From the NCBI GenBank assembly GCA_902627615.1, contig CACOJW010000002.1, positions 26,971-90,970 on the forward strand: DNA of 64,000 bases, given 5' to 3'. The notes beneath the pieces were generated by a model. The model did not search any database. It saw nothing but the letters and a program-made list of their open reading frames with translations, and was not told the DNA's origin. Positions 6,190-56,000 of this stretch are shown here, piece by piece (the stretch's first letter is position 1; each line of letters starts with the position of its first letter). This stretch comes from an uncultured marine group III euryarchaeote (GTDB lineage Archaea; Thermoplasmatota; Poseidoniia; MGIII; CG-Epi1). A program made the translations under genes and the position numbers.

Positions 6190-6297
6190 ATTAGTGACGT
6201 CCCGAAAAATCTTCCATGCTTCGCGACGAAGCGCCCTCTATATTATATGAGCAGAGGGCGTTTTTCGTCTAAATTACTTGTTTGTAGTCTAAAAACT

Positions 6298-16500: not shown

Positions 16501-17788
16501 TGCTTCCACCTTCCAGTGTAGCTAATAAATTGTCATTTTCTCCAGCTTCACTGGTCCATGCTAAAGCATGATTTGTTTGAGAGGTCACTTCCCAAGCTCT
16601 TACTATTCCAGCATCACTTCCATGAACAATCCAAGGGTCATCATGTCCATTCATAGAGATAGTTACTCCTCCTCCGGTATTCATTGGAAATCCGCCACTC
16701 CATTCTTGGTAGGTTGTTAAACTGGAACCAGACAATCCCATGATTCGTATGTTTCCACTTCCATCGGCAACAACTAATTCTTCATTGCTATTTCCAAATA
16801 AATTTTCACTTGCTAGTCCATATCCACTTTTTACGTCGTTATCGCTAATCCTCTCGTCACGATCACCGTCCACAAAAATAGTTATTTTTGATTGTTGAGG
16901 AACAATCAACTCATCAATTCCATTTCCATCTAAGTCGGCTGCGTGTAAACTGTAACACAAGCTATCTGCGCCACTACTTCCATCCATGTCATATTTCCAT
17001 TGCATTTCTTCAGTTTGGCCGTCAAAAACTGCGACCCAGCCCTGCTTACTTCCAACAGCTACCTCTGTAGCTTCATCGTCGTCAAATTGTCCAAATGTTA
17101 AGCCCCAAGTATTTTCTAAATTACCGCCACTAGTTTTAGCTCCAAGATCTACATACCACTCAGCTTCATCGTAAGTAATATCTCTGCCAACATAAATTTC
17201 AGGTTTATCTGTATCTACAACCCATAAAAATCCACGATCACCACTCATTGCCAATTCAGCTTTTTCATCCCCATCCAAGTCGCCCATTGCCAGCCCATAT
17301 GGCCATCCTTCAGTCCATTGAGTGTGTGACCATGATACTCCAGAAGACCAATTTGCTTCTGCAAGAAGAGAGATTCCATCAATAATTTTTACTTTTCCAG
17401 AATCTGCATTCCAGTTGTAACCAATTGCAATTTCCAATTGTGGGTCATCATCTATTTGTGCTATTTCCATTCCTTTTACAGGACCACCCATATCTACGGT
17501 GTGGAATGTTTCAAACCATCCTTCGTTACTAGAATCCCAGTCCAAAATGTGGACATATCCTTGTGAATTACCAAAAATTAACTCATCCTCACCATCTATA
17601 TCTATGTCAGCACTTTTAATCGAATTTAAAGCACCGACACCAGTACCTATTCCAGTATGCCATTTTTCGCTTAAATAACCAGTATCCGTATCTGTTCTAG
17701 CATCATTTGCAGCTTCAACATTTATTCCAGAGGAAACGGCAGAAATCAAAAAGACGATAGCCAATGCTAGAGCTTTTGCTGGATTCAT
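13586..17788 (-). CDS. Giant (1400 aa) integrin-alpha-like FG-GAP/VCBS beta-propeller surface protein with CARDB and PKD domains, a TM helix and a cytoplasmic C-terminal zinc ribbon
   Basis: Signal peptide MNPAKALALAIVFLISAVSSG. At least 9 FG-GAP Ca loops (GDLDGDEKAE, ADLDGNGIDE, GDLDSDGNNDIA, GDLDGDGTEE, GDFDSDGEAE...). CARDB-like segment (PDLAIEGSEISYLPENP..ITINLSIVNYGG). PKD signature (SYDPDGDDSKLEYSWSI...GTYIAILTVTDERGG). TM MLAGIAGVAVVALAGLAMGL. Tail CPNCNG...CPMCGSQF. Confidence 0.9.
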   Translation of the reverse strand: MNPAKALALAIVFLISAVSSGINVEAANDARTDTDTGYLSEKWHTGIGTGVGALNSIKSADIDIDGEDELIFGNSQGYVHILDWDSSNEGWFETFHTVDMGGPVKGMEIAQIDDDPQLEIAIGYNWNADSGKVKIIDGISLLAEANWSSGVSWSHTQWTEGWPYGLAMGDLDGDEKAELAMSGDRGFLWVVDTDKPEIYVGRDITYDEAEWYVDLGAKTSGGNLENTWGLTFGQFDDDEATEVAVGSKQGWVAVFDGQTEEMQWKYDMDGSSGADSLCYSLHAADLDGNGIDELIVPQQSKITIFVDGDRDERISDNDVKSGYGLASENLFGNSNEELVVADGSGNIRIMGLSGSSLTTYQEWSGGFPMNTGGGVTISMNGHDDPWIVHGSDAGIVRAWEVTSQTNHALAWTSEAGENDNLLATLEGGSNYGVDMANLDDDDNLEIVVGSGSGRIYVFDGATYETQWVSPQLDKIPIGVAIGDLDSDGNNDIAVTTGIPGEPKGEEGDGGEGYLYVFERSGDGFTEAFKSGNIDASLGVTISELDGTNHPEIGIATGYLEIIEATSGTTELHGAVKVWGYGGSSFSQEWTSGDIGQIVGGIDSGDPDNDGDNELVVGTGGDNREGSQANAEVRVYQRTGGSYSLDGSVMNTARYTAYGIDVGDLDGDGTEEIIVGTGEKGENKPRLIIYDGDSHAEDYSKDVDSNSVWGIEVGDFDSDGEAELIYGTSGGELFIYDGIEPGTFEAKTSALSNRAGHYGGIAIGNADNDGAMEMAVGSDAYLWLFTTEGQTNKPDLAIEGSEISYLPENPNEDEDITINLSIVNYGGADTAKWRVKIYDGDPDAGGKKITEFSCDATEENQRDGCKALSNGESASFEVIWYGIQTTPGYHEIYGLAEDTNQPRQETRFSNNKDYTILEIEEIPNDKPVVEATIDKTILWVDEAARVDAGNSYDNETTDGEMDRLDGNPDLTYRYYFDGSWTTWVSDYTWDLSFSTPGEKEILVQTRDERRKESTQQVITVEVKANTQPIAILKSNITEASDGAFITFDVSDSYDPDYRAELEYRFNFGDNVFSDWVKEGQTVRLYRNAFFTGPNGGELQLDSGEEVVQNEFGINRIFRLMNGSNAAIANLNLGEGLFLLEVVDSQVTTNGYNYTLPELFDEKIFSAQLMAREIDESGADDILASSWSPLIPIRIYLPENINPVAKAEAGIFINGQGIFSDILKSAKTGEEITYSAANSYDPDGDDSKLEYSWSIVNGQGFSINLLGDKNSKTFNKIYNTPGTYIAILTVTDERGGTATWQATVTVSDSGVNRGDGEEDGYSTTMLAGIAGVAVVALAGLAMGLKRMGGGGGDDFEEMFEDVTPGPLELNCPNCNGLISITTTQRPIQVGCPMCGSQFVIRE
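13589..13690 (-). other. Cytoplasmic C4 zinc-ribbon tail of the FG-GAP surface protein
   Basis: LNCPNCNGLISITTTQRPIQVGCPMCGSQFVIRE lies after the TM helix and a KRMGGGGGDDFEEMFED linker. Confidence 0.75.
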
Positions 17789-29986: not shown

Positions 29987-30469
29987 TTACAATTCTCGAG
30001 GCAGAAGTAATTCTTCTAAATTCCAATTTCCAGGTTTTTTCCACGATTTTGAATTATCCTTTATTGTAAGTAATGCAGTTGCAGCAGTAGGCATTCGATG
30101 CCATTCTCCACACAAATGTTCAAGAAAGTCGGCACAGCCAGGATTATGGCCAAGTATCATAATTGTTTCATAGTTTAATTCATCTGGAATATTTTTCATA
30201 ATTTTTTTTGGTTTACTGTGATAAAATTTCCGAGAGTATTTTACATCAACGTTTTTTATGTATTTATTCATTCTTTTCCAAGTTTCTTTAGTTCTAGCAG
30301 AATCACTGGAAAATAATTTGTTAGGGATCCATTCTAATCTCATTAGTTCTTTAGCAATTTTTACAGATGCTTTTCTTCCTCTTTTTTTCAAAGGCCTCTC
30401 ATGATCAGATAGGTCAGGATATTTCCACGAACTCTTAGCGTGTCTCATCAAAATTAGTTTTGATATCAT
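29987..30469 (-). CDS. Histidine-phosphatase superfamily protein, SixA-like
   Basis: LILMRHAKS (the RHG-type catalytic His), RPL..RG, SSDSARTKET and ILGHNPG. Confidence 0.7.
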   Translation of the reverse strand: MISKLILMRHAKSSWKYPDLSDHERPLKKRGRKASVKIAKELMRLEWIPNKLFSSDSARTKETWKRMNKYIKNVDVKYSRKFYHSKPKKIMKNIPDELNYETIMILGHNPGCADFLEHLCGEWHRMPTAATALLTIKDNSKSWKKPGNWNLEELLLPREL

Positions 30470-31452
30470 TTTTTGTCTTTTTTTGCAGAATAGTTTATTG
30501 TTGCTTCAGAGATATCTGTAGAATATGCTATCGTCCTCATAATTGCATCAATAGCTATTGAAAATTCCAGCGGATGTTCCATTTCTTTTTTGTATTTATT
30601 CTCGAAATATGTTCTGGCTTTTTGCATAGTTTTCTTCCCTTTATCTATATTATTTGTGGCTTTACGCGGTTCGTTATTGATGAAACTTTTCATAGCTTCT
30701 TTCATAATGTACTCAGCATCTTTTGCTAACGGCAACATTTTCCTTCCAGGGATTAGTCCAGCAACGTATCCTATTTCGGCAAGCCTACATGCATGATCCG
30801 CAATTCTCTCAAGATAGCGCGCTACATTTGAATAAATTACACCTTCAAAAGAAGTGGCCTGAAGTGGCCTTGATAGGCTCGAGTCTTCAAGCATCATGTT
30901 AAATTGTCTCTCAATAAACCATTGTAGCTTATCAGCTTCTTTATCTCTATCAACAACATCAGCAGCCAATTCCTTTGACCCTTCTAAAATTAATATGGAA
31001 TCGCTGTACATTGCGTTAACAATTTTGTATAATCGTTTTATTGCAGTCCTTAGAGGCAAAGCGCCTGGATTTGACATATCATTTAAAATGGCGATAGTGG
31101 CTTCTTCTTCTATTATTTCTAAGCCAATAACACTTGCGGAAAATTTACGTATGGTCTTTCTTTCCTTAACTGTAAGTCTGGGGTTTCCTACAACTTTTAT
31201 TTCTGTCGCTCCTGCTAAATAAACTCCGATTAAGTCTCTGAACAGGTGCTGGCTTTCTTCGTTATTACAAGTTACAGTTGATATTTTTTTCTTAATGTTG
31301 TAATTTCCTGGGTCGATAGTCATAGTACCGTCAGGCTGTTTTATCAATCGTACTTCTGAACCTGTTTTTAGGTTATTTTTCTTAATCCATTTTTTTGGTA
31401 GTGAAACGATTAGTGTAGATCCTCCAGTTTTTTGTAATTTACGACTTTCCAT
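30466..31452 (-). CDS. Phosphate-uptake regulator: N-terminal AbrB/SpoVT DNA-binding domain plus two PhoU repeats
   Basis: KLQKTGGSTLIVSLPKKWIKKNNLKTGSEV (a swapped-hairpin AbrB-type sequence), followed by PhoU-like helices (D.DKEADKL, ERIADHA). Confidence 0.8.
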   Translation of the reverse strand: MESRKLQKTGGSTLIVSLPKKWIKKNNLKTGSEVRLIKQPDGTMTIDPGNYNIKKKISTVTCNNEESQHLFRDLIGVYLAGATEIKVVGNPRLTVKERKTIRKFSASVIGLEIIEEEATIAILNDMSNPGALPLRTAIKRLYKIVNAMYSDSILILEGSKELAADVVDRDKEADKLQWFIERQFNMMLEDSSLSRPLQATSFEGVIYSNVARYLERIADHACRLAEIGYVAGLIPGRKMLPLAKDAEYIMKEAMKSFINNEPRKATNNIDKGKKTMQKARTYFENKYKKEMEHPLEFSIAIDAIMRTIAYSTDISEATINYSAKKDKK

Positions 31453-31483
31453 AATTTTTTGGTTTCCTTTGTGCTCACTAAAA

Positions 31484-31498
31484 TATATAGGCTATATA
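31484..31498. promoter_or_regulatory. Palindromic double TATA element TATATAG-G-CTATATA in the divergent phoU-like/pit intergenic region
   Basis: Perfect 7-nt inverted halves, 32 nt from the phoU-like ATG (31452) and 46 nt from the pit ATG (31544). More TATA-like sequence follows at 31511..31520. Confidence 0.45.
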
Positions 31499-31543
31499 TA
31501 ATATTTAGTATATATTTATTTAGGTGCAGTTTTGAAGGCAGAC

Positions 31544-32977
31544 ATGTTTGGACTGGATATAATGATTTTTCTTGCAATATTGATCGCAGGATACATGGCT
31601 TGGAACATCGGGGCAAATGATGTTGCCAATGCTATGGGAACAAGTGTCGGTAGTGGAGCTTTAACTTTTAGAAATGCTATAATTGCAGCAGCGGTTTTTG
31701 AATTTTTAGGGGCTTTCTTTGCAGGAGATGCAGTAACAGATACAGTAAGAAAAGGAATCTTAAATTTTGAAGAAGCTGATTTAGAAAAATATTCTACCGA
31801 ATTGAAATATGGATTTATTGCAGCTATGTTTGCAGCAGCTTTGTGGTTGACAGTTGCAACAAAATATGGTTTACCTGTGTCCACTACTCATAGCATAGTT
31901 GGAGGAATCCTTGGTATTGGAATATATGTTGCACCAGACAACGTAGATTGGGAAGTGGTGACCAAAATTGTGATGAGTTGGGTAGCATCACCTTTGCTTG
32001 GAGGAATTTTAGCGTACACAACATTTGTAATTGTTAAGAGAGTAATTATGGATGCAGAAGATCCTATTGAAAGATCTAGGATAATGGCACCAATTTTGGC
32101 TCTTCCCACATTTTTTGTCCTCGGTTTAGCACTTCAATATAAGGCAATGAAAGGAATGATTAAACGCCTTGATTCCGAAGGATTTTTAGACAAGGCAGAG
32201 TGGTTGCCAGCTAGCGAAGGTACAACATTTAACATTTTTGAAGAAGGTGCTTGGTTACCTTTGTATTCTCTTCTCCTAGCCCTATTCATAGGAATTGTAG
32301 CTAGCGGTGTACTCTATTGGATCTTAAGGGAATATGAATTTGATGAAGAAGGATATCAGGGCGTAGAGAAAATTTTTGTATGGTTGCAAGTTATTACAGC
32401 TTGTTACGTAGCTTTTGCTCATGGAGCAAATGATAGAAGTAATGCCATCGGTCCGATGGCCGCAGTATGGCAAATACATGAACAGGACGTCCTTCAGTCT
32501 GAGGCAGCAATACCAACATGGTTGATTCTTTTAGGAAGTGCAGGTATTACGCTTGGAGTAATGACCTGGGGAGCCAGAGTAATGGTGACTGTTGGTAAGA
32601 AAATTACCCATATTACACCAACAAGAGGTTTTGCAGCTGAGTTTGGAGCGGCCACAACAGTTTTAATTTTTTCAATGCCTTTCCTAGCAGTTCCTATCTC
32701 CACAACACACACCCTTATTGGCTCTGTAGTTGGGGTAGGTTTGGCAGGTGGTACGGCTTCTGTAGACTTCAAAGTATTCGGAAGGATAGCTGCGAGTTGG
32801 GTTGCCAGTATACCTGCAGCAGCCATTGGCTCGATTGTGCTGTACATGATTTTTGGACTGGATGAAACAAGATTTATCATATCAGTTGCAATAATTTTAT
32901 CAACAATAATTTGGCTGTTATACAATGCAATTGTAACCGAGCTAAAGTCTGATATAAGGTCAGAGGCTGAAGGTTAG
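31544..32977 (+). CDS. pit: Inorganic phosphate transporter, PiT family
   Basis: The GANDVANAMGTSVGSGAL signature occurs near the N-terminus and recurs as HGANDRSNAIGP in the second half. The track uses TTG 31532; I prefer ATG 31544 (MFGLDIMIF...). Confidence 0.93.
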   Translation: MFGLDIMIFLAILIAGYMAWNIGANDVANAMGTSVGSGALTFRNAIIAAAVFEFLGAFFAGDAVTDTVRKGILNFEEADLEKYSTELKYGFIAAMFAAALWLTVATKYGLPVSTTHSIVGGILGIGIYVAPDNVDWEVVTKIVMSWVASPLLGGILAYTTFVIVKRVIMDAEDPIERSRIMAPILALPTFFVLGLALQYKAMKGMIKRLDSEGFLDKAEWLPASEGTTFNIFEEGAWLPLYSLLLALFIGIVASGVLYWILREYEFDEEGYQGVEKIFVWLQVITACYVAFAHGANDRSNAIGPMAAVWQIHEQDVLQSEAAIPTWLILLGSAGITLGVMTWGARVMVTVGKKITHITPTRGFAAEFGAATTVLIFSMPFLAVPISTTHTLIGSVVGVGLAGGTASVDFKVFGRIAASWVASIPAAAIGSIVLYMIFGLDETRFIISVAIILSTIIWLLYNAIVTELKSDIRSEAEG

Positions 32978-32979
32978 AG

Positions 32980-33642
32980 ATGAAATTCTTTGAAAGCAGA
33001 ATTGGACCTAGCGTTTTCAAATCATATTACAAGCATGCTGAAAGTGTTTTTGAGACAGTTGAAAATATGAATGCTTCTGTTAAAGCAGCATGTGATGGTG
33101 AAGATATAGTACCACACATCAAAGCAACGTCAGAATCCGAACTTAAAGCAGATAAGATTAAAAACGAAATAAGAGATGTCTTGAGAGGCAGCGTTCGTTT
33201 AGCTATTGACAAATTAGTTTTTCTTGATTTAGTTTCTAGGCAAGATAGAATTGCAGATTATGCAGAAAATGTAACGGAAATTTTATCATTTAGAAATTTA
33301 TATGAAAATAAAGAAGCCCAGTCTTTGGTTCTAGAGTTAGCAGATTCAGTCACATCTACAGTCGAGGAGTATCGTAAAACAGTAGAGAGGTTTGAGTATC
33401 TTTTAGAATCAGCATTTTCAAATAAAGAAAAAGACATAATGCACGAACATATTGCTAAGGTTAATGATTTAGAGCACCAAGCAGATTTAGTAGAAGCTAA
33501 AGCTGCAGCCTATGTTTTTTCTAACGGCGATGATCAACCTTTGGCAGCAGCACATATGTATCGATTGATTCAGAGACTTGATGATGTCGCCAATGCAGCA
33601 GAAACTGCAGCCAATAGTCTTCTACCAATAATTTCAAAGTAG
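32980..33642 (+). CDS. DUF47/PhoU-like Pit accessory protein
   Basis: Helical 220-aa protein starting 2 nt after pit, the usual position and size of the DUF47 (TIGR00153-type) partner of PiT transporters. Confidence 0.7.
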   Translation: MKFFESRIGPSVFKSYYKHAESVFETVENMNASVKAACDGEDIVPHIKATSESELKADKIKNEIRDVLRGSVRLAIDKLVFLDLVSRQDRIADYAENVTEILSFRNLYENKEAQSLVLELADSVTSTVEEYRKTVERFEYLLESAFSNKEKDIMHEHIAKVNDLEHQADLVEAKAAAYVFSNGDDQPLAAAHMYRLIQRLDDVANAAETAANSLLPIISK

Positions 33643-33668: not shown

Positions 33669-34364
33669 ATGGTTAATATGAATCTCGAAGTCCCGTTGTA
33701 TACTCAGTCCATGGATTTTAGTTGTGGTTCAGCTTGTGTAGCAATGGCTCTGAAATATTTTAATTTTGTTAGTAATATGGATAGAGATCTTGAAGTTGAG
33801 CTATGGAGAGAAACGAATGCTGTCGAGATGAAAGGTGCAGGCAGATATGGCGTTTGTGCTCCACTTTCTGTTAGAGGCCTCCACCCACACATCATAACAG
33901 ATAATCCTGATTTAGGGCTTATTGAAAGGGCCAAAACATATGTCAAGTCTAATGGTGGAAATGAAAATTATCTTATTTTCTTCCATGACATGCAAAAAAG
34001 AGTATGCGCACTTAATGGAACCACTCAAGAGATCAGAAAGCCAACATTAGAGGATATTCGTGAGGCAATTCAAACAGATAGAATTTGTATTGCACTAGTT
34101 TCTACAATAATCTTTGAGGAAGAAGATGAAGACATTCCACATTGGATTGTCATCACCGGGGAAGATAATGGAATTCTGACGGTAAATAACCCAATTGATG
34201 AAGATACAGCAAAATCTCATCGACCTATCTACTTTGAAGATCTTTACACTAATGTTGAAATGTATCAAGAAACAACGTTGATAACAGTCGGCAAGAAAGC
34301 TCTTGAAAAAGAATTAGTCCCTGAGCCGGAATTATCCACAAAATACCTAGAATATGTTCGTTGA
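33669..34364 (+). CDS. Papain-like cysteine peptidase, C39-like domain protein
   Basis: VPLYTQSMDFSCGSACVAMALKYF (an oxyanion Gln and catalytic Cys spaced as in C39), followed later by IPHWIVITGED..VNNPID (candidate His and Asp/Asn). Confidence 0.6.
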   Translation: MVNMNLEVPLYTQSMDFSCGSACVAMALKYFNFVSNMDRDLEVELWRETNAVEMKGAGRYGVCAPLSVRGLHPHIITDNPDLGLIERAKTYVKSNGGNENYLIFFHDMQKRVCALNGTTQEIRKPTLEDIREAIQTDRICIALVSTIIFEEEDEDIPHWIVITGEDNGILTVNNPIDEDTAKSHRPIYFEDLYTNVEMYQETTLITVGKKALEKELVPEPELSTKYLEYVR

Positions 34365-35723
34365 AAGGTAGTAATACATTAGGTAAATACCTATCACTAT
34401 CATAATGATTCCACCAGTCATTTCTATTTGGCGAGTTGAGGCTTTCATTCTATCAACAATTGTAGTTTCAGATGCAGCCACCATCATTGTGAAAGCCACC
34501 ATCAAGATTCCAGCAGTCATTGCGAAAATTAAGAAAACTAGTAGTCCCGTTATTATTCCTTGACTAATACTTGCAGTTAACAGCCCTATTACGACAGGAG
34601 CCACACATCCTGCAGCTGCAGATCCGTAAGCAACACCATACCAGAATAGACCAATTCGAGTTCCGTCTGAATTATCTGAGAAACTGAAGTCTTTTCCTGT
34701 TGTGGCTTTAATTCCTTTTTCTATTCCTTGTTTAGCCATAAGTGCAGGGGCCGAACTTCCTATTTGGGCTACAAGTTTACGGAATGGCTGGACTATCTTC
34801 TCAGAATCATATTCCATTACCATCACAACACCTAATCCAGTAAGTACTATTCCAATTAACAATTCTAAATGTCCTAATAACCCTCCAATAACACTCACAA
34901 ATGGAATCAGTAATATTCCAATCAATAGCAAAACTCCTGCCAAACCTGCCGCAGCAGCCAATCCATCAGGCAATGTTTCTCTTGCAGCGGTTTCATCAAA
35001 TTTACCAGTTCGTTGCTTCTTGTTTGCTAAGTAAAAAGACATGTATCCGGGAAGCATAGGAAATGAGCATGGAGAGAAGAAAACCATCACTCCAGCACCC
35101 ACTGCAAATAAATAAATTGAAGATTCTTTTAGATTAACAACGCCGCCTTGACCAGTAAGTGCTTTATCAACTTCATTGCTTAGTTCACTTTCAGAGATAG
35201 GGCCAACATGAGAATAGGTGATTTTCCCTTCTTTATCTATGATGAATATTTTAGGAGTTCCAATAACATTGTAGTCTATCTCAATATCTCCATTTGAATC
35301 TCCAAGTGCATGTCTCCAATCATGTTCTTCAGCATAATTCCTCAATTTAGTTTCATCATCGTTACCAAAAACACTAACAGAGACTATTGCAATATCATCC
35401 TCGTCCATATAACCAGAATAAGGTCCTAAAGCTTCCTTTACGAATTTCTCACATGGTACACAAGTACTGAACATAAAATCGAGAATTACTACTTTCTCAC
35501 CTTCGTAATCAGATAAGGAGAAAGTTACACCCTCAGTATCTTTTAGTGTAAAATCAGGAGCCTCATTATCTCCTCCAATCATACCGTATAGTACAATTGC
35601 TAAAATAAGTATTACACCAGTTCCAATAGCAAATAGAACTTTATTTTCTAGTATAGAGTTGTACCAATCACTTTGATTAATATTCTCTATGAATACATCC
35701 CAATTAGTTTTTTGCTTAGCCAC
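34347..35723 (-). CDS. Fusion protein: N-terminal TM anchor, TlpA/ResA-like thioredoxin domain (CVPC) and CcdA/DsbD-type transmembrane thiol-disulfide electron transporter
   Basis: APDFTLKD..G..FSLSDYEGEKVVILDFMFSTCVPCEKF...VIGTPKIFIIDKEG (Trx fold with a cis-Pro), then FFSPCSFPMLPGY and AAAGCVAPVVIG (the two conserved CcdA membrane cysteines). Confidence 0.85.
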   Translation of the reverse strand: MAKQKTNWDVFIENINQSDWYNSILENKVLFAIGTGVILILAIVLYGMIGGDNEAPDFTLKDTEGVTFSLSDYEGEKVVILDFMFSTCVPCEKFVKEALGPYSGYMDEDDIAIVSVSVFGNDDETKLRNYAEEHDWRHALGDSNGDIEIDYNVIGTPKIFIIDKEGKITYSHVGPISESELSNEVDKALTGQGGVVNLKESSIYLFAVGAGVMVFFSPCSFPMLPGYMSFYLANKKQRTGKFDETAARETLPDGLAAAAGLAGVLLLIGILLIPFVSVIGGLLGHLELLIGIVLTGLGVVMVMEYDSEKIVQPFRKLVAQIGSSAPALMAKQGIEKGIKATTGKDFSFSDNSDGTRIGLFWYGVAYGSAAAGCVAPVVIGLLTASISQGIITGLLVFLIFAMTAGILMVAFTMMVAASETTIVDRMKASTRQIEMTGGIIMIVIGIYLMYYYLSTNIF

Positions 35724-35733
35724 CTAGTTACAC

Positions 35734-37074
35734 CTAGTTTTTTCGTCGATTTAATCCAATAAATAGAGCACACAGGATTCCAATAATCCCGAGTCCGGGA
35801 GAATCTTGTTCATTATTTCCAGTTCCAGTACCTTCGAATTGCTTAGCTTCACTGGCTGCAAAACCTTGTTTTCCGTCAACCAACAAAATTCGATACCAAA
35901 CAGGATCTCCGTCACTAAATTCAATAGATGCAGAAGCTACATTATTTTCATCTATTTCCATAGGCATTACTCCCCAAGCTTCATCATTGTATGAACCATT
36001 ATGGAAATTATAAATTATATAAGCTGAACCGATTCCATCTTCATCTTCAAGAGTGGCACTAACTTTAGCTACGCTTCCTTCTAGCTTTTCATCATAACTA
36101 ACAACTTTTGGAGGCTCGTTTTGCTCGTCATATGCAGTTGATTCAGGAGTTGCTGAATTAGCAGCTCTTGGGGTATCTGCTGCGTTGCCCGTTTTTCCAG
36201 ATGAAGTAGTTCTGGAAGTATCATCATTGTCGTATACTACAGCTACAACAGAAATTTTGGCAGGATTGATTGGTGTAAGAATAGGATGTTCACCTTCTTG
36301 GGGATTTCCATCATGATCTTCGTGACCACTTGGATACATAATTGTTTCAGGAATTATCCATTCAACTTCATTACTCCAGGTTTCACCAGGTAATAGTTCA
36401 ACTTGAGCATTATGAAGAGCCGTTTCTCTGAAAACGTTGTGAGTCATAACTTCTTTATCTTCGACAGAACTCCAAGCCATGATGTCATCTTCAACTACAA
36501 ACAAGTAAACGCTTGAATCAAGTTGATCAGGATCAGTTGGAAGGCGAATGCCTCCTTCACCCAAATAAGTTAAGTTTACAGTAAATACAAATCGGTCTTC
36601 CCTAAATTCTTGCCAGACCCTTAGTTCTGTTGGTTTAACCTCTCTTTCACCACATTCAAAATAATGATCTTTGTAAGTATCATAAGTACCGTCTCCACCA
36701 CCTAATTCTTCGATGTATCCTCCATCAAATTGAGCATCAGGAGTACCCTGCACTGAGTAATGGTTGTAACGGTCTTTAGCTTCTTGACTAGCAAATTCAT
36801 CATCTGATCCACCATTTATTTGGTGAAATGATACAAATGTTACAGGGTGAGAAGGATCTTCTCGAAATTCTTTCCATAGTTTTGCCACATCTGGGTCAAT
36901 ACCCATACATGGAGGGCAGCCTAAGCTGGTAAATTGCTCCATGAGAGGCCTGTGAGTCCATCCGTTAGGATATTCATCTGGTTCAGTATTGCTAGCCCCG
37001 GTAGGAATTGAAATTGATGAAATAACAAATATAAAACAAACAGCTATGGTTAGTAAATTTAGTCTCTTGCTCAC
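35734..37074 (-). CDS. Surface-anchored thioredoxin-fold CxxC protein (CPPC), paralogue 1, with a PGF-CTERM-like tail
   Basis: Signal peptide; YPNGWTHRPLMEQFTSLGCPPC...FVSFHQINGG...VQGTPDAQFDGG (a DUF1223/Omp28-like pattern); C-terminus SPGLGIIGILCALFIGLNRRKN. Confidence 0.8.
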   Translation of the reverse strand: MSKRLNLLTIAVCFIFVISSISIPTGASNTEPDEYPNGWTHRPLMEQFTSLGCPPCMGIDPDVAKLWKEFREDPSHPVTFVSFHQINGGSDDEFASQEAKDRYNHYSVQGTPDAQFDGGYIEELGGGDGTYDTYKDHYFECGEREVKPTELRVWQEFREDRFVFTVNLTYLGEGGIRLPTDPDQLDSSVYLFVVEDDIMAWSSVEDKEVMTHNVFRETALHNAQVELLPGETWSNEVEWIIPETIMYPSGHEDHDGNPQEGEHPILTPINPAKISVVAVVYDNDDTSRTTSSGKTGNAADTPRAANSATPESTAYDEQNEPPKVVSYDEKLEGSVAKVSATLEDEDGIGSAYIIYNFHNGSYNDEAWGVMPMEIDENNVASASIEFSDGDPVWYRILLVDGKQGFAASEAKQFEGTGTGNNEQDSPGLGIIGILCALFIGLNRRKN

Positions 37075-37127
37075 ACTATCACCTTGAACTAATATCCTAC
37101 AGCACGTATTTTACACTTTTGCTCTTT

Positions 37128-38636
37128 CTAATCCCAAATTTCAGCATCATCCCAAGACCCTTCGGCAGGCCTTCTAGCCCACATAACAAATCCTGCGACA
37201 GCTCCCAAAACTAAGGTACCAACGGCAATCATCATAATTGGTAAATCTCTTTCTTCAGAAGGAGGAGTTCCGCCATCTGAACCTACAAATTGTAAAACAT
37301 CAGTTCTACTTGACGTTTTATTTCCATCTGAGAAAATAACTTGATAATAAATTTCATTATCGCCAGAGTAGGGAATTAATGAAGTTCCTGTAGCTCCAGA
37401 GTATGCGTAACAGACTCCGTTTTCGTCACAGACTTCTTCACCTTCAATTTTCATTTCATCAGTCATCCATTCACCAGTAAAATTACTTGATTCATAATTA
37501 TAGACTACAAATGCAGCACCTATGCCCTCATCTGCATCGAAGTTAGCGAGTATTTCTGCACCTTCATCAAGGTATTTTTCAGTTTTTTTGGTTATCTCAG
37601 GAACATCTCTCTCAGGGTTATCATATTCAGTTGATTGAGGTGTAGCAGATTGAATTGCCCTAGGTGTAGGATATGTGTCGTCACCGTTTGAGTCCTGATC
37701 GTTGCCAGAATCTGTATCATCGAGATCAAAAACAGCTGCAATTGGAATTATTCTACCTGGGTTGATTGGTATTTTGATGTCACCACTTACTCCATCTCCA
37801 TCAACTTGGGTGGTTGGAACTTTCCAAACAGCACTAACTGTGGTTGATTCACCTTCAGCAAGAGTAAATTGTTCATCATTTATTCCATATTCTCGAAATA
37901 CCATTCTATTATTCCAAACTTCGTCTAGATATGAAGAATAAGCAGGAACTCCATCTTCAACCATGAAAACAATTAGTTCACCGTTTAAATCAGGACTTTC
38001 TCCTAAAACATCATCAGGTTCAGTAGGGATTCCATCATCACCTCCAGTCTGTCCATGGTATGTGATATCAACACTTAGTCTGAATTGTCCAGCTTCACCT
38101 TCAGATTCAGACCCTATAAATTCACTGTAAATATCTAAATCTACGATTTTGAAAGGTTCGTCATTTCCTTCACCCTCTCTTTGTCCAGACTCAGACATTG
38201 CATTAGTGTAATCTTGATAGTTTGAATCTCCACCACCTCCAACATACCTATAATTTCCATCAAATTGAGCGTTGGGCGTTCCAGTTTGACCATAGTGGTC
38301 TCTCATTCTGGATTTGGAATCTTCAGTATGGAAAGGATCATCACCAGCACCTCCATTTGTTTGATGGAAAACAACAACATTGTAAGGATTTGATTCATCC
38401 ATTTCGCCATCATGAATTACTTCTTCCATAGCAGGATCAGCATAATTCATACAATACACACAGCTCAAACTCGTAAAAAGTTCTCCAAAAGGCCTGTGTG
38501 TCCATCCATTAGGGTAAGTTCTGTCAGAATTAGTTGTTTCGTATTCTATCGTTTCTTCAATGGCTCCTGAGGAGCAAGGAGAACAAAAGGATAGTGCGAC
38601 GGCCATCACTATAGCCAGTTTAACTGATTCCAACAT
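37128..38636 (-). CDS. Surface-anchored thioredoxin-fold CxxC protein (CVYC), paralogue 2, with a TM anchor and acidic cytoplasmic tail
   Basis: Alignable with 35734..37074 along its whole length: YPNGWTHRPFGELFTSLSCVYC, VVVFHQTNGG, QTGTPNAQFDGN, TPRAIQSATPQSTEYD. C-terminal TM IMMIAVGTLVLGAVAGFVMW. Confidence 0.8.
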   Translation of the reverse strand: MLESVKLAIVMAVALSFCSPCSSGAIEETIEYETTNSDRTYPNGWTHRPFGELFTSLSCVYCMNYADPAMEEVIHDGEMDESNPYNVVVFHQTNGGAGDDPFHTEDSKSRMRDHYGQTGTPNAQFDGNYRYVGGGGDSNYQDYTNAMSESGQREGEGNDEPFKIVDLDIYSEFIGSESEGEAGQFRLSVDITYHGQTGGDDGIPTEPDDVLGESPDLNGELIVFMVEDGVPAYSSYLDEVWNNRMVFREYGINDEQFTLAEGESTTVSAVWKVPTTQVDGDGVSGDIKIPINPGRIIPIAAVFDLDDTDSGNDQDSNGDDTYPTPRAIQSATPQSTEYDNPERDVPEITKKTEKYLDEGAEILANFDADEGIGAAFVVYNYESSNFTGEWMTDEMKIEGEEVCDENGVCYAYSGATGTSLIPYSGDNEIYYQVIFSDGNKTSSRTDVLQFVGSDGGTPPSEERDLPIMMIAVGTLVLGAVAGFVMWARRPAEGSWDDAEIWD

Positions 38637-50053: not shown

Positions 50054-53000
50054 ATGCAAAAAACTCATAATGTAAGCAAGAGAAATTGGGCTGCAAAGCT
50101 GATGGCGATTGTAGTCGTCGTGTCTATGGTAGCAAGCACGTTAGTGCTATTCGCTCCAGAGGCATCGGCAAGAACCGGAAGTGATTCTTACGGTTATACT
50201 TTTAAGGATAATGCTGAGGCAGATGGTCCAGTATACGATGATGAATGGATAGAATTAGTGGGCAATGATGCGGCTGAGCTATTAATTTCATCTAGTACTG
50301 ATGCAGGTCAATCCGCAGTTGATATTGGTTTTACCTTTGAATTCTACGAAAATGAATATACGACGTGGGGTAACGGAGGAGACAATGGATATATCAATTT
50401 AGGATCTGCAGGTTATTCCTCTCGCTGGACTCCATATTCAATCCCATATAGTGGATTGGGTACTGCAGTCATTGGCGGATGGTTTGACGGCGGTTTCTGT
50501 CGAGCAAGTAATCCAACAGCAGGAGTTTACTACGCTACTATAGGTACTGAACCAAACAGAAAATTAGTTGTTCAATACCAAGATCAGGGAGCATGGTATC
50601 CTTCAGTTTATCAATGTCCAGGTGCTGCAGCAGCTAATGCTTTGACCTGGCAGATAGTATTGCACGAAAATACAAATTTAATTACTATGAATTACAAGGA
50701 TACTAATGGCGGATATAGTTCAGATAATGAATATATGACAGCAGGTATCCAAGGTGTTCCAGGTGGAACTTTAACCGGTTTACAATATGCATACCGTAAT
50801 AGTCCAACTTGGTCTGATGAAACATCAGTAAGATATGCACCACCACCTCCAGCAAGAAATGATTTGAGATTGAAATCAACAGCAGTTCCTGATCCAATGT
50901 CTTTGGCAGAGGAAAACATTCTTGGAGCTACAGTATCTAATTACGGTGTAAACTGTGACACAGCAGGTGAATGTACTCCAGTAAATGAGGACAATGTAGC
51001 TGTAAAAGCCAGTATTTTCTCAGTTAAAGAGAGCGTTTCCACTTTCGCATTTGACGGTGAAGACTCAGATTCGTTCACACCAATGAGTATTCAAGGTCAA
51101 AACAAGTGGACTGCAGCTTTGAATGATGGTAAAGGAGACCACAACTACGGTGATGAAGGAAGTGACGATGGTTCATGGTCTTCAGGCCGTAAATCACAGA
51201 CTCTTGGCGGTATGTTTACAGATCAACAAAAAATCCATTACGATGGAACTAATATTTTGATTGCAGATAAAGGCTCAGACAGTGTTTTGAAATTGGATAT
51301 TGCCACAAATGCAGTAACAACAGTTATTGCTGCAAGTAGCACTTATCTTAATGATGTAATTGATGTTACAGATGATGGAACTTACTACTACACTTTGGCT
51401 AGAACTTCAGGAACTTACTCATCTACAACTAAAGTTTGTAAGTGGTTAATTTCTGATACAACCCAAGCACCAACATGTAGCGGTTCGACTGCAGTAAGGT
51501 ACGGAACTTCTTTGACCCATTACGGCGGTGAACTCTTTGCACTACAAACTTCATCAAGTTCGACATATCGTAAAGTCATAATTTTAGATGCAAGTGATAT
51601 GTCAACAGAAGGCAGTCTTTCCTATGCAAGTGGAGTTTCATCTTATTATTATGCAATGGGAATCGATGCCGATGATACTAATGGTGATTTGTATATTGCT
51701 TACCGTGATTACTACGGACGCACTAGAGAATATACTAGAGATTCAGATGGAGATTATTCAGCATCTGATTATAGGCAATTCTACACATACGCAAGATATC
51801 ACCACGCATTGGATGTTCAAGATGACTACGTCTACACTAGTGGATTCTACTACTCATCATGGTATGGCGGTATGAAGAAATGTTCAACAAGTTCATCTAG
51901 TTGTTCAACACTTTGGAATTCATACACTGGAGCGAACGGATACAAAGGTTCAGTTGCAACAACTGATACTGGAGATATTTACGTATCTAGTAATTACGCA
52001 TTCAGTTACTACAGTTTCTCTAATTGGGACGATAAAATCTGGATTCACGAAAATGATGGTGGCTACTCAGGTACACCAGATACAACCTTGGGACCAAATC
52101 CAGCTAGTTTGGCAGCATTGTCAACTCCGGCATTTGACACATCAGATGCTATTGGAATGACAATGACTTTCAAGTATTCATACCAATTTTACTACAGATG
52201 GGAAGGTGCTTACCTTGAGTCATCTGTTGACGGCGGAAGCACTTGGGACTATGTTTCAGGTGATAAATTCTCAGCCGGCGGATACTATGGAACTACATTC
52301 GGAGTATACGGAAATCCAATATCTACCTCACTAGATACTTGGACTTACTATAACACGAACGATAGATACAGTTACAATACAAATTCAGCCCCATGGGCCA
52401 CAGCTTCATTAGATCTTGGAGATTACACTGGTTACAGTGATGTGAGATTCCGATGGGTTGTAGGTTTCAATCAGTATGATAATACATACTACTATGATTC
52501 CTACTTCAGGATTGATGATGTAGAAATAACTACTAAAGAAGCAGATACTACTTATGCAGAAGAAACTCAAACTATAGCTTCTCTCGGGTTTAAAGAGGAA
52601 GCAAGTGTAGAATTCTTTACAGTGGATACTTTCCAGCCTTCGTTGGAAGGACTATCTGTTGGAGATAAGCTGGCAGTATTGATTAGTGTTACTGGCGAGA
52701 ACGGTGATGAGGATCTCAGTAACAACCGAGATATCCAATTCAGAGAAGTCAAATACGTTATATTTGCAGATGATTTCGAAGATGGTGATGCTAGCAATTG
52801 GGAAACTGGTAAGGTTAGATACGGATCAGGAGATACCTGGGAAGTTCGTGATAGAGATTCTAATGCAGGCTCTTACTCCATGGACAGTGACTTTAGGAGA
52901 TCAAATTCTGTTCCGGCAGATAACTATGTATCAACTCCAAGTTTAGACTTGACTTTGCCTGTAGAAGCCGAGCTTCAGATGGCAATATCTTTCTACGGAT

Positions 53001-56000
53001 ACTACACGTATGATGGATATCAAGTGCAGGCTTCAGGAGATGGTGGAGATACCTGGGCAGCGATACAACCTAAAGCCAGTGATCCAAGACAGTATGGTAC
53101 AATCTATAATACAGCGTACTATTCCAATCCACTACGTGGACTCAAGGGATACACATCTTATGGAACAACAACTGGATTTACCTATTCGCCTGATCCTCAG
53201 GGATGGGTAAAAGCTACCTTTGATTTGACAGAGTTCTGTGGAAAGAATGATGTTAAGGTTAGAGTAGTTACAGGTTGGTCAACATTATCGACAGGTCCAA
53301 GTTACTTCGAATCATTCTTTAGGTTTGATGACGTAGCAGTTACTGGATTGGTCTTTAATGATAATATAGGTCTAGGAGGATTTGAACTGCCGGACCCATT
53401 GGGCGTAGATGCAACAGTGCCTGTAGAAGCAACTGTCATTAACGCAGGTATCAACGCACAAGCTGCAAATGAGGCAACTGTAAGACTACAATTAGGACCT
53501 ATGGGATTGGAAACATATGATTCCTCAGAAGATATGGAAGACTATGCAGATGAAGCTGCAGCAGTAGTTGCAGGCTGGGCAACCAGTGATGACTGTAACA
53601 CAACCTACAGCACATGTAGCAACTGGGGATACTATGGAGGAGATCCAGGTTTTGTCATGAACACTGATGAAGGAGATGGTGACGAAACCAACTCTTGGGG
53701 TTCAGATGGCGATGAGTTCCAAATGTATTACGGCGGAGGAAGTGTTAGTGCAACAACACCAACAATTGATTTCTCTGGTGCAGCTAGTGATTTAACATTC
53801 ACAATGGTCCACAGATACAACTTTGATTACTATGCAGGATATACAGCTTATAATGGTGCTCAAGTTCACATATCAACAGATGGTGGAGACAATTGGGAAT
53901 TACTCACACCTAGCGGTGGATACCCAGGAACAATGTACAACTATGCACCATACGGTAATCCATTGTCTGGACAAGCTGGTTTCGTAAACTGTGGTTCTTG
54001 TCCAGGATCTGGAGCAGCCAGTGACGATGCAGACGAGTATATCTCTACTGAATTCGCTATGGCTGATTACGTAGATATGACAGATGTAAAGCTCAAGTTT
54101 GTTGTTGGAATGTACAGATATCAATGGCCAGGTGATGGAGAACACTGGCATATTGATTCATTGTCATTCACAGGAACAGGAATGGAGTCAGTTGCATTTG
54201 AAAAGCAATGGGATATCACAGGTGCTGGTGCTGGTGGAGAGTTCCAGAGTGGTGAAGCTCAAACAGTTGGTGTAGATTATCATTTCCAAGTTCCAGGAGA
54301 ATACAAAATTGTATTTGACGCATGGATAGGAGATAATCCATCTGATGGAGATGACTTTGCTGGAGACAACAGCGTTGCTCTTGCAAGGGAAACAATGTTC
54401 ACAGTTGTAGGAACTACAGGAGATGAGAGTGCTATGACTAAGAAGAATGACGAAAACAATGATAGACACTATGATAGTGGTTGGCACGCCTCTGTAGATG
54501 GAGGACCTAAGGATGGATTCCAATGGCAACCTTCAGCTACTACTGGAGCAAGTTCTGCACCGGTATGGTGGAATGGCCTTGACACCTATGGTAGTTCGTA
54601 TAATGGTGATGATACTAGCTTAGTATCTCCAGTTTTCGACCTTTCCAAGGCAACATCTGCTAAACTAGTATTCAACCACAAGTTTGCAATGCATGGATTT
54701 GAATATTCATGGGCTAATTACTACTATGATGGTGGTCGAATTGAAATTAGTACAGACGCAGGAGATTCCTGGTCAGCATTGAATCCAACCTCCGGTTTGG
54801 GCTATGGTGGAACTATCTACAACTATGCATACTATGGCAATCCATTGAGAGGTCAATCAGGTTTCGTTATGGGCTCTGATGGCTGGCACGAAACACAATG
54901 TAGATTAGATTCTTACACAGGTCCGGGAATGGATCAACTTCAGATAAGATTCCGATTGGGTGGAACGTTCTTTAACAATCCAACAAATTGGGAAATTGAT
55001 GATGTAGGAGTTTATGGACTTGGTTTCGATCTTGCTATGACCTCTGAAGCAGCACCGTATACCTTAGAAGTAGGTGAATCATTCACGATGTCTACTTCAT
55101 TCAAAAATCAAGGTATGGGTAACCTAGGACCTGGAGGCGCTGTGGAAACTGCTCACGCATATGCATATGTTAATGATATGGGTGGCAACGAGCTTTGGTC
55201 ATCTGAAACATCACTCGGTACGCTAGCAATGGCTTACTACGATGACGCAGGCAATACAGTTGCAGGTGCAGAATCAGCAGTCATTGACTTTGAATTCCCA
55301 GGAATGGATACGGCTGGATTATACACAGCAGGTGTCAAAGTAGCAGATGCCGATGGTAACACATTAGCAGACTTGTTCATGGCTAACAATGATGCAAGCC
55401 ACATGTTGATTGTAGGTAAGAGCGCAGATATGGGTTCACCACTATTGACTGGCGGACCTAATTGGGTAGCAACAGAAGATGAACCTGCAGAAGTCGGTGA
55501 CGGCGCTATGGGCGTTTCATGGGACCAAACTGGCGTAGCTACAGATGCATTAGCAGTGTCCATTGGAGGACAAGCTACTGGTTTTGTTCCTCAGAACCCA
55601 ACAGTTCAACTTGGAACTGAAGTAACATGGACCAATGCAGATAGTATAACACACACAGTAACAGACAAGGATGCACAATTCGATTCTTTCGATATGCTAC
55701 CTGGTGAAAGTTATTCATTAACCTTCACGGAAGTAGGAGTGTTCAACTATTACTGTAAGTTCCATCCAATGATGGAAGGATCTATAACCGTACTATCTTC
55801 GCAGTCGGCAGATGAGCAAGTCAGAACAAGCTACGTTGAAGTTTGGTCTGCTACAGCTTATCTAGTATTCTGGGCAAATTTCGATATGTCTGACGACAGT
55901 GAAATTAGTATTTATGCACAGAAGAAAGGCGCATCTTTAGATGATGCAGACACTCTAGGACTATGGGGAGCTAATGGATTCACCATAATGGACGGATCAA

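Follow-up and report, generated by a model that had tools for sequence, protein, structure and literature searches.

How is reducing power delivered to cysteines on the outer side of an archaeal cytoplasmic membrane? Cysteine redox management in this place is, to our knowledge, poorly characterised, and the question is raised by three consecutive genes, here called A, B and C, of an uncultured marine group III euryarchaeote. They are located in a stretch of 64,000 nucleotides (nt; "the window") of contig CACOJW010000002.1 (assembly GCA_902627615.1, positions 26,971 to 90,970 of the forward strand). Marine Groups II and III are uncultivated and are dominant planktonic archaea of the sunlit ocean. 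A first-pass annotation, made from the letters of the window alone, had read A and B as paralogous surface proteins with a CxxC motif, C as a fusion of thioredoxin (Trx) and CcdA, and the three together as a self-contained pathway by which dedicated CxxC proteins are supplied with reducing power. Adjacency of the genes in relatives, gene fusions and the conservation of the active sites support this pathway, and from the analogy to CcdA/DsbD proteins we infer that electrons are passed along it. We consider it likely that A, B and C form an extracytoplasmic, DsbD-like reductive thiol relay, the last step of which is protein thiol-disulfide exchange at the cell envelope.

Organisation of the A-B-C locus

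The order, strand, coordinates and spacing of the three genes agreed exactly with the list of open reading frames (ORFs), and the translations contained the CVYC, CPPC and CVPC motifs where the first-pass annotation had placed them. From 5' to 3', the genes are:

37128..38636, minus strand: gene A, 502-amino-acid (aa) surface-anchored CxxC ectoprotein of the CVYC type (ORF list, paralogue of B, AlphaFold2 model)
35734..37074, minus strand: gene B, 446-aa paralogous CxxC ectoprotein of the CPPC type (ORF list, alignment to A)
34347..35723, minus strand: gene C, 458-aa fusion of a membrane anchor, a ResA/TlpA-like Trx and CcdA (ORF list, Pfam, NCBIfam)

A and B are separated by 53 nt, B and C by 10 nt. 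By eye, a GGTGA was found just 5' of the GTG start of B, within the A-B spacer, and an AT-rich box about 20-32 nt upstream of the ATG of A. Both are consistent with a single transcription unit, and A, B and C most likely form one operon. A search of the whole window revealed no further A/B paralogue.

Architecture of the ectoproteins A and B

The alignment of A with B extended over essentially the full length of both proteins (34% identity, expectation value (E) 2e-67), as had been claimed for them. Hydropathy, an alignment of 17 homologues, the most distant with 33% identity, and an AlphaFold2 (AF2) model of A also bore out the proposed signal peptide and Trx-fold-like head, with FHQxNGG and GTP(N/D)AQFDG present in both A and B. 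The features of the two proteins are:

38562..38636, minus strand: A, hydrophobic N-terminus resembling a signal peptide, about aa 1-25 (hydropathy maximum at residues 1-26; boundary approximate)
38172..38519, minus strand: A, predicted Trx-fold head, about aa 40-155 (WTHRP, FTSLSCVYCM, FHQTNGG, GTPNAQFDG)
38451..38462, minus strand: A, CVYC redox motif, C59/C62 (translation; invariant in the close-family alignment)
37725..38150, minus strand: A, first beta-sandwich, aa 163-304 (AF2 strands; counterpart of the Pfam Omp28 region in distant relatives)
37620..37664, minus strand: A, invariant motif PRAIQSATPQSTEYD, aa 325-339, after the acidic linker (equivalent in B: PRAANSATPESTAYD)
37305..37598, minus strand: A, second beta-sandwich, aa 347-444 (AF2 strands; extra cysteine pair C403/C409)
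37173..37250, minus strand: A, C-terminal transmembrane anchor, aa 463-488 (hydropathy 2.39; AF2 helix 466-487)
36907..36918, minus strand: B, CPPC redox motif, C53/C56 (translation)
35752..35793, minus strand: B, short C-terminal hydrophobic tail, aa 428-441 (SPGLG before it and RRKN after it; PGF-CTERM-like by eye)

Full-length A was modelled by AF2 with a predicted local distance difference test score (pLDDT) of 77.9 and a predicted template modelling score (pTM) of 0.76; the blocks of the head had a pLDDT of 70-91. The N-terminus of the model is a helix (2-17) followed by a disordered linker, and the N-terminus of B is hydrophobic and signal-like, too. The head then runs through a strand (50-55), C59/C62 at a helix (60-79), a strand (86-91), a helix (105-114), T120-P121, two strands (122-125 and 130-133) and a helix (140-151). 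This order, with CxxC opening helix 1 and the cis-Pro position before strand 3, is in the model that of a thioredoxin fold. It is followed by the first sandwich, a low-confidence acidic linker, a short strand and helix with the invariant motif, the second sandwich and the transmembrane helix. Invariant residues of the head in the 17 homologues are W-T-H-R-P, E, F-T, C59, C62 and M63 as well as H91, N94, D100, R110, Y115, G-T-P (119-121) and D-G (126-127). Behind the linker, R326, A327, S330, A331, T332, P333, S335, T336 and D339 are invariant, and the motif P-R-A-x-x-S-A-T-P-x-S-T-x-Y-D was found in all 17 homologues and in fusion proteins of about 900 aa that are described below.

The beta-rich body, the acidic region and the C-terminal anchor of the first-pass annotation stood for A, but the anchor of B has to be revised. 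The hydrophobic tail of B comprises only about 14 residues and fails the 19-residue hydropathy threshold; B orthologues have SPGFG at the position of its SPGLG, and by its sequence the C-terminus looks more like a sorting signal (archaeosortase, PGF-CTERM-type) than like a plain transmembrane helix. Sorting-domain models matched A, B and homologues only below threshold (GVDTG_CTERM with A, E 0.008; Heimdall-CTERM and LAETG with homologues, E 0.28 and 0.07), and the PGF-CTERM model gave no match in the NCBIfam scans of A, B and homologues; membership in a sorting-signal family is not claimed. The tail of A behind the anchor, WARRP..GSW, is predicted to be cytoplasmic, and WAR(R/Q/M)P..G(S/T)W is kept in single-copy Marine Group II homologues. 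Both proteins are acidic, with 96 Asp and Glu versus 26 Lys and Arg in A and 77 versus 30 in B.

The paralogues differ in a regular way. All Marine Group III A-type genes encode CVYC or CVFC and all B-type genes C(P/S)PC, whereas single-copy ectoprotein genes encode C(P/S/A/G)PC. A retains the ancestral C-terminal half as it is found in single-copy Marine Group II proteins, that is the loop with C403/C409 (CDENGVC), which is absent from B-type proteins, the transmembrane helix and the WARxP..G(S/T)W tail, with the dipeptide of the redox motif changed to give CVYC. B retains the C(P/S)PC of the single-copy proteins, is devoid of the loop and has the short SPG(F/L)G-hydrophobic-RRKN end. This split of ancestral features suggests that A and B share out the ancestral role, and their differing CxxC dipeptides probably adjust the two to different potentials or clients.

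Relationship to the Omp28/DUF1223 branch of the thioredoxin superfamily

Members of the Omp28/DUF1223 branch, among them a subfamily of selenoproteins, are found widely among Bacteroidota and other bacteria. We know of no established physiological role of the branch and of no established physiological substrate of the bacterial Omp28, NF045500, DUF1223 and HBP35 families. The first-pass annotation had named Omp28- and DUF1223-like models for A and B, and of this suggestion the remote homology was upheld, but not a direct family match. In a Pfam scan A had no match and B only a chance-level match to Thioredoxin_2 (E 0.19); neither protein matched Pfam Omp28 or DUF1223 at E <=1. NCBIfam NF045500 (Omp28-related selenoprotein) was found in A and B with E 5e-6 and 5e-8, but the scores of 26 and 32.8 bits are far below the cut-off of 200, and the lipoprot_Omp28 model gave 21 bits, with a cut-off of 150. 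A weak NCBIfam Omp28_seleno match covers residues 50-269 of A; the distant relatives match Pfam Omp28.

A profile of the A/B family gave 318 matches among 1.84 billion representative sequences. The distant ones (E 1e-6 to 1e-17) share an (E)xFT(G/S)xxCxxC motif and are Omp28, Omp28-selenoprotein or DUF1223-like. Among them is P0261, which was found by the close-family profile at E 1.2e-13 and scores above two Pfam cut-offs, with 60.1 bits for Omp28 and 34.2 bits for DUF1223; many sub-threshold Omp28-like proteins are included as well. When a broadened head profile of 46 sequences was compared with the sequences of the PDB, the DUF1223 structure 2AXO (E 2e-9), HBP35 (5Y1A, E 9e-5) and dozens of thioredoxins (E 1e-8 to 1e-4) were found, with CxxC and cis-Pro in register; 2AXO is classified as a thioredoxin fold in SCOP (PMC3091736). 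Since the profiles lead to Omp28/DUF1223 proteins, to 2AXO and to thioredoxins, A and B belong, as judged by profile comparison, to the Omp28/DUF1223 branch of the thioredoxin superfamily, as distant archaeal members that stand outside every curated family. They have Cys at both redox positions and no selenocysteine, and they are archaeal proteins that have a signal peptide at the N-terminus and are anchored at the C-terminus, unlike the lipoproteins and type IX secretion system (T9SS) cargo of the Omp28 family.

With the full-length model of A, Foldseek returned mainly immunoglobulin (Ig)-like sandwiches (transglutaminases, adhesins, receptors; template modelling score (TM) <0.2), a result that says nothing about the head. 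Matches of the close-family profile to influenza neuraminidase among the PDB sequences (E about 0.1), located in the second sandwich, were rejected as spurious, and the bacterial Omp28-like protein P0310 had no match among the PDB sequences. The CxxC head was also seen in other architectures among the distant members P0219 (999 aa), P0255, P0263 and P0276 (1356-1452 aa) and P0261 (617 aa), either joined to fn3 repeats, as in P0219, or in two copies within very large proteins. P0285, a T9SS cargo protein of the Bacteroidota type, has PKD domains.

Protein C, a fusion of thioredoxin and a divergent CcdA

The Pfam matches of C and an alignment to a CcdA structure agreed with the previous description of C as an anchor, a TlpA/ResA-like Trx and a CcdA domain with both cysteines. 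Its features are:

35577..35639, minus strand: signal-anchor helix TM0, aa 29-49 (hydropathy 2.58; Lys-containing N-tail predicted cytoplasmic)
35169..35567, minus strand: Trx domain, predicted extracytoplasmic, aa 53-185 (AhpC-TSA and Redoxin matches)
35451..35462, minus strand: CVPC motif, residues 88-91 (translation)
34359..35123, minus strand: predicted six-helix CcdA/DsbD-type membrane domain, aa 201-455 (hydropathy, family profile versus 5VKV)
35067..35069, minus strand: Cys219, in FFSPCSFP (FFSPCSFPMLPG)
34605..34607, minus strand: Cys373, in AAGCVAP

The Trx domain matched AhpC-TSA (E 5e-16, 59.2 bits, cut-off 26) and Redoxin (E 9e-14, 52 bits, cut-off 26.6). Its nearest solved structures are 2M72, ResA, pneumococcal Etrx1/2 and TlpA, with ResA, Etrx and TlpA at E 1e-9 to 5e-5. 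The nearest named NCBIfam relatives, ResA, DsbE, StoA and TlpA, all remained far under their equivalog cut-offs (ResA, the best with E 4.5e-15, 56 versus 170 bits; DsbE 36 versus 123; TlpA 23.5 versus 230), which places the domain in the broad family and outside the named orthologue groups. For the membrane half, a profile was made from 12 diverged relatives, and it found the Thermus CcdA structure 5VKV (E 1.5e-6) across both halves, with the two cysteines in register. DsbD_TM was matched by nine of the 12 (relatives that pass include P0192 with 46.4 bits and P0199 with 39.7 bits), and Cys219 and Cys373 are invariant in all 12. Because relatives pass DsbD_TM and the family profile finds 5VKV, C is by transitive evidence a divergent member of the CcdA family, and its membrane half is, on this sequence evidence, a CcdA domain with six helices and both cysteines.

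Hydropathy indicated one anchor helix (29-49) and six further helices in C. The N-tail and the alternate loops contain 3, 5, 8 and 3 Lys and Arg (19 in total), the three short segments on the other side contain none. By this distribution residues 50-200 with the Trx domain, and both ends of the CcdA domain, are predicted to be outside the cell, in agreement with the outward orientation that had been assumed for the Trx domain. The Trx domain is thus predicted to lead into CcdA helix 1 from the outside, in the manner of the periplasmic N-terminal domain of DsbD.

CcdA and ResA are a classical pair in Bacillus, and this raises the possibility that C is part of a System II-like cytochrome c maturation in which it reduces the CxxCH of apocytochromes, with A and B as unrelated companions in the operon. 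ResA is the best NCBIfam match of the Trx domain, and several orthologues of C are named 'cytochrome c-type biogenesis protein' by the Joint Genome Institute (JGI). However, the score makes C no ResA equivalog, and no CxxCH occurs in the ORFs of at least 150 aa that lie before 30 kb or beyond 43.6 kb in the window, on either side of the operon. Among the called neighbours of the module (window, L001-L006, L061) there was no ResB/ResC-type gene, which corroborates the earlier statement that cytochrome c maturation genes are not found nearby. The lasting and even fused partner of C across Marine Groups II/III is a CxxC ectoprotein (see below), and Poseidoniales make prominent use of halocyanin and similar blue-copper carriers in electron transport (PMC9723583). 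System II cytochrome c maturation was therefore rejected as highly improbable, given the lack of ResB/ResC or CxxCH nearby and the identity of the conserved, fused partner.

Distribution and genetic coupling of the module

The homologues of the three genes are all marine, and the named ones belong to Poseidoniia or Thermoplasmatota. B has 68 homologues, all from marine Poseidoniia or metagenomic, and C has 290, named 'redoxin domain-containing protein' in Poseidoniia. In a scan of one genome per GTDB species 53 loci were found. The closest (A 88% identical) are from Marine Group III single-cell and metagenome genomes, the remaining ones from Marine Group II (Poseidoniaceae, Thalassarchaeaceae) and other Thermoplasmatota. 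A locus was taken as informative if 700 nt or more of sequence follow downstream. The synteny on which the proposed pathway depends holds across these relatives: in 48 of 53 informative loci, one or two ectoprotein genes are followed directly by a Trx-CcdA gene of the same orientation; among GTDB species representatives the figure is 41 of 46 informative loci, and the gap between ectoprotein and Trx-CcdA gene was estimated to be -6 to 72 nt in 46 of the 48. Flanking genes vary from locus to locus, for example FdhD/FTCD versus HerA/TPR. Marine Group II genomes have a single ectoprotein; the A-B duplication was found in one Marine Group III clade, which includes the window (17 loci).

In four loci with a single ectoprotein and Trx-CcdA (L029, L040, L045 and L057) the C protein is about 70% identical to that of the window and the ectoprotein about 36% to A/B. 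By sequence comparison, the surface ectoprotein diverges much faster than the membrane component C. One Thermoplasmatota locus, L052, contains a second, short family member (6369..7367, minus strand, 332 aa, ELYTAQNCPYC) that is convergent to the ectoprotein gene; this CPYC protein ends with a transmembrane helix and a long Lys/Arg-rich tail.

The coupling goes as far as fusion. Proteins of 887-922 aa that combine ectoprotein, Trx and DsbD_TM were found in at least six lineages, each in a separate 50%-identity cluster (P0192, P0194, P0195, P0199, P0205 and P0207). The join is head-to-tail, in the order ectodomain, transmembrane helix, Lys-rich loop, second transmembrane helix, Trx and CcdA; the two helices and the Lys-rich loop between the ectodomain and Trx predict that both redox domains are outside. 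A fusion is encoded by an uninterrupted 894-aa ORF in a Thermoplasmatota genome (L056) and by an 896-aa gene on a 26-kb archaeal contig (L061). Gene-calling artefacts were rejected as an explanation, given these uninterrupted ORFs and at least six clusters with less than 50% mutual identity. The components are thus genetically coupled, by operon or by fusion, and all redox modules are predicted to face outward.

Of 41 close cluster representatives 37 retained the CxxC motif, and of 70 distant ones 69 did (106 of 111); cis-Pro was retained in 106 of 106. Orthologues without CxxC, which by the first-pass annotation would refute its reading, do exist among A-type relatives that lack one or both cysteines (P0197/P0335 with SAVYD, P0209 with SASPD, P0223/L059 with YPPC). 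They are encoded at:

L062, 67..2358: P0335, 763 aa, SAVYD
L063, 151..1452: P0209, 433 aa, SASPD
L059, about 4878..6503: P0223, YPPC

None of the defective copies in these three visible contexts is located beside Trx-CcdA, compared to 48 of 52 intact copies; loss of CxxC and missing adjacency are associated with a Fisher p of 0.0013, in a small sample and with kinship ignored. Since the copies with a defective CxxC are the ones unlinked to Trx-CcdA, they strengthen the coupling rather than refute it.

These data also bear on a different view of A and B, namely that they are mainly structural or adhesive surface proteins in which the cysteine pair is a structural disulfide or a relic, and that C serves other clients. 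Two Ig-like sandwiches and the acidic linker do form most of A and B, and the whole model matched Ig-like domains; some relatives have lost CxxC or have additional surface domains, such as P0335, which gained about 300 residues and a Cys-rich acidic tail, and P0219 with its fn3 repeats; and the fast divergence of the ectoproteins would fit such a role. Against this, CxxC and cis-Pro are conserved across very large distances, the cysteines are at the catalytic position of a head that is, as predicted, a bona fide thioredoxin fold, loss of the cysteines goes together with loss of the link to Trx-CcdA, and a fusion to Trx-CcdA in several lineages is hard to reconcile with a purely structural role. 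We therefore give this view very little credence.

A model of the proposed relay and its known counterparts

CcdA/DsbD proteins transfer electrons from cytoplasmic thioredoxin across the membrane to extracytoplasmic thioredoxin-like acceptors. In the proposed relay, cytoplasmic thioredoxin would reduce the Cys219/Cys373 pair in the CcdA domain of C, and this pair would reduce the CVPC of the outward Trx domain of the same protein. The Trx domain would then reduce the CxxC of the membrane-tethered heads, CVYC in A and CPPC in B, which would be dedicated acceptors. As the three cysteine-pair modules of the fused relatives mimic DsbD/ScsB, A and B could be terminal reductases, or an adaptor and distributor that passes electrons on like the alpha domain of DsbD. 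In the last step, oxidised cysteines of envelope proteins that are exposed to an oxic, sunlit sea would be reduced, isomerised or repaired; thiol-disulfide exchange with envelope proteins is favoured because the heads keep the classical site of CxxC and cis-Pro.

By analogy, the logic of this relay would be that of DsbD and ScsB, the transmembrane reductant conveyors of Proteobacteria with dedicated envelope substrates (PMC2631958, PMC3322552). Common to them are a CcdA-type core with two cysteines, two extracytoplasmic cysteine-pair modules, one of them with a Trx fold, the presence of all three modules in one chain in the fused relatives and the delivery of reducing power to an oxidising compartment. 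Unlike DsbD, the archaeal core has six helices instead of eight, the Trx module precedes the membrane domain instead of following it, and the third module is not an Ig-like alpha domain but an Omp28/DUF1223-like Trx-fold head on two sandwiches with its own anchor; moreover, the version in the window is split into separate genes and duplicated, and its archaeal host has no outer-membrane-bounded periplasm. The resemblance would be especially close to the surface system of Streptococcus pneumoniae, in which CcdA serves the surface protein Etrx and this MsrAB2 (PMC3914529). There, CcdA1/2, the surface ResA-like Etrx1/2 and a dedicated surface acceptor are encoded by operons in an organism without an outer membrane, and among solved structures those of Etrx (4HQS, 2YP6, 4HQZ) are some of the best matches to the Trx domain of C. 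In contrast to the pneumococcal system, CcdA and Trx are one protein in the window, and the acceptor is an uncharacterised CxxC Trx-fold ectoprotein without similarity to Msr.

The CcdA-ResA and TlpA-ScoI/CoxB systems also have a membrane-anchored ResA/TlpA-like thioredoxin that is reduced via CcdA and is related in sequence to the Trx domain of C, but no ResB/ResC, CxxCH, Sco or Cox gene was found beside the module among the neighbours examined. The ectoproteins share with Omp28 (PF11551), NF045500, DUF1223 (PF06764) and HBP35 a secreted or surface Trx-like module with (E)xFT(G/S)xxCxxC and cis-Pro and a beta-rich domain behind it; unlike these families, A and B are archaeal, C-terminally anchored, have a second sandwich and the invariant PRAxNSATPxSTxYD and are genetically linked to Trx-CcdA. 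Another combination of a CcdA membrane domain with a thioredoxin-like domain in one polypeptide is the DipZ-type protein of Mycobacterium tuberculosis. In DipZ the thioredoxin-like domain comes after the membrane domain, whereas in C it comes before it and behind an extra signal-anchor helix, and we know of no Omp28-like partner described for DipZ. In the literature on Omp28 selenoproteins and on Marine Group II disulfide systems no published description of a module of ectoprotein and Trx-CcdA was found.

The final substrate of A and B is likewise one that we infer, and a second reading differs from the favoured relay from C to A/B in the last step alone. In this reading A and B are chaperones or reductases of copper or another metal or metalloid, or thiol peroxidases, and their CxxC is kept reduced by C. 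TlpA keeps the thioredoxin-fold copper chaperone ScoI and CoxB reduced, and the Trx domain of some C orthologues also matches Pfam SCO1-SenC. The related NCBIfam family consists of selenoproteins, which implies catalysis at the CxxC position. ScsB sets a precedent, as it feeds a peroxiredoxin of the cell envelope (PMC3322552), the distant relative HBP35 of Porphyromonas gingivalis combines haemin binding with thioredoxin activity (PMC2907840), and Poseidoniales depend on highly transcribed blue-copper carriers such as halocyanin and plastocyanin (PMC9723583). In addition, many polar or metal-ligand-type residues are invariant besides CxxC and cis-Pro (H47, R48, H91, N94, D100, R110, Y115, D126). 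On the other hand, A and B had no Sco, peroxiredoxin, ArsC or Msr match at E <=1 in Pfam and NCBIfam, their cysteines form a classical CxxC with cis-Pro, unlike the CxxxC...H of Sco or the PxxxTxxC of peroxiredoxins, and no conserved copper, oxidase or peroxide gene was located beside the module in the window and in the loci with called genes. We consider a metal or small-molecule substrate unlikely. The substrates that the first-pass annotation had listed, giant surface proteins, copper, and sulfur or selenium compounds, are speculative candidates.

Several observations weigh against the thiol relay as proposed. The eight residues just named exceed the needs of a generic protein-disulfide reductase and could serve a metal or small-molecule substrate instead. 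The direction and the reality of an electron flow from C to A/B would follow from the biochemistry of CcdA/DsbD proteins, that is by analogy. The membrane half of C itself stayed below the cut-off of Pfam DsbD_TM (PF02683; 27.1 bits) with 15.8 bits for the whole protein and 23 bits for the isolated domain. The AF2 model of the isolated head was poor (pLDDT 59.1, strands 3 and 4 lost), and although nearly all top Foldseek matches of this model belonged to the thioredoxin family, they were not significant (E >0.2, TM <0.5). The head is N-terminal, with two sandwiches and a linker between it and the membrane anchor, and would need to swing back to reach the membrane-proximal Trx domain of C. Finally, five informative loci with a CxxC-bearing or variant ectoprotein (L048, L052, L053, L055 and L059) have no adjacent Trx-CcdA gene, and the linkage is thus not universal. 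The relay has support from gene order, domain identities, predicted topology, motif conservation, adjacency and fusions, and protein thiol-disulfide exchange at the envelope is in our view its probable last step.

Neighbouring genes

The genes around the A-B-C operon are unrelated to it; they comprise a Pit/PhoU phosphate-uptake set, a C39-like peptidase gene and a Ham1-family gene. The neighbours on the 3' side of C are:

33669..34364, plus strand: C39-like cysteine peptidase gene (Pfam DUF3335, E 8e-27)
30466..33642: phosphate-uptake cluster of a MazE/PhoU-domain regulator, a PHO4/Pit transporter and a PhoU_div (DUF47) protein, downstream of C and past the C39-like peptidase gene

The peptidase gene is convergent with gene C, and the 3' ends of the two overlap by 18 nt; in other loci this adjacency to the module is not kept. 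The phosphate-uptake cluster has no relation to the thiol relay. Elsewhere in the window there are three very large ORFs with signal-like N-termini, at 8610..12740 (minus strand, 1376 aa), 13586..17788 (minus strand, 1400 aa) and 50054..57196 (plus strand, 2380 aa), which encode 17, 7 and 15 cysteines, respectively. They are possible surface clients of the thiol relay, with no specific link to it.

Implications

A compact module of one or two ectoproteins and a Trx-CcdA fusion is conserved across Marine Groups II/III and comes with a clear and testable electron path, for which the gene fusions and the unlinked paralogues without CxxC are natural controls. The overall design is already familiar from bacteria; new is an archaeal DsbD-like relay, split or fused, with a new family of acceptors. 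For the Omp28/DUF1223 branch of the thioredoxin superfamily, the dedicated supply of reductant would be the first functional link from genomic data.

It is conceivable, though rather doubtful, that the ectoproteins are a new class of archaeal surface reductases that spend cytoplasmic reducing power on the environment and not on the proteins of the cell itself. If so, the detoxification of extracellular peroxide or organic oxidants, or a reductive acquisition of copper or iron, would be possible functions, the invariant His, Arg, Asn, Asp and Tyr together with PRAxNSATPxSTxYD would form a new catalytic or binding site on a thioredoxin fold, and the fusions of about 900 aa would be a DsbD analogue that was assembled independently in archaea. 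Should the final clients indeed be oxidants or metals, the module would be relevant to the tolerance of photochemical oxidants or to the acquisition of trace metals by these archaea.

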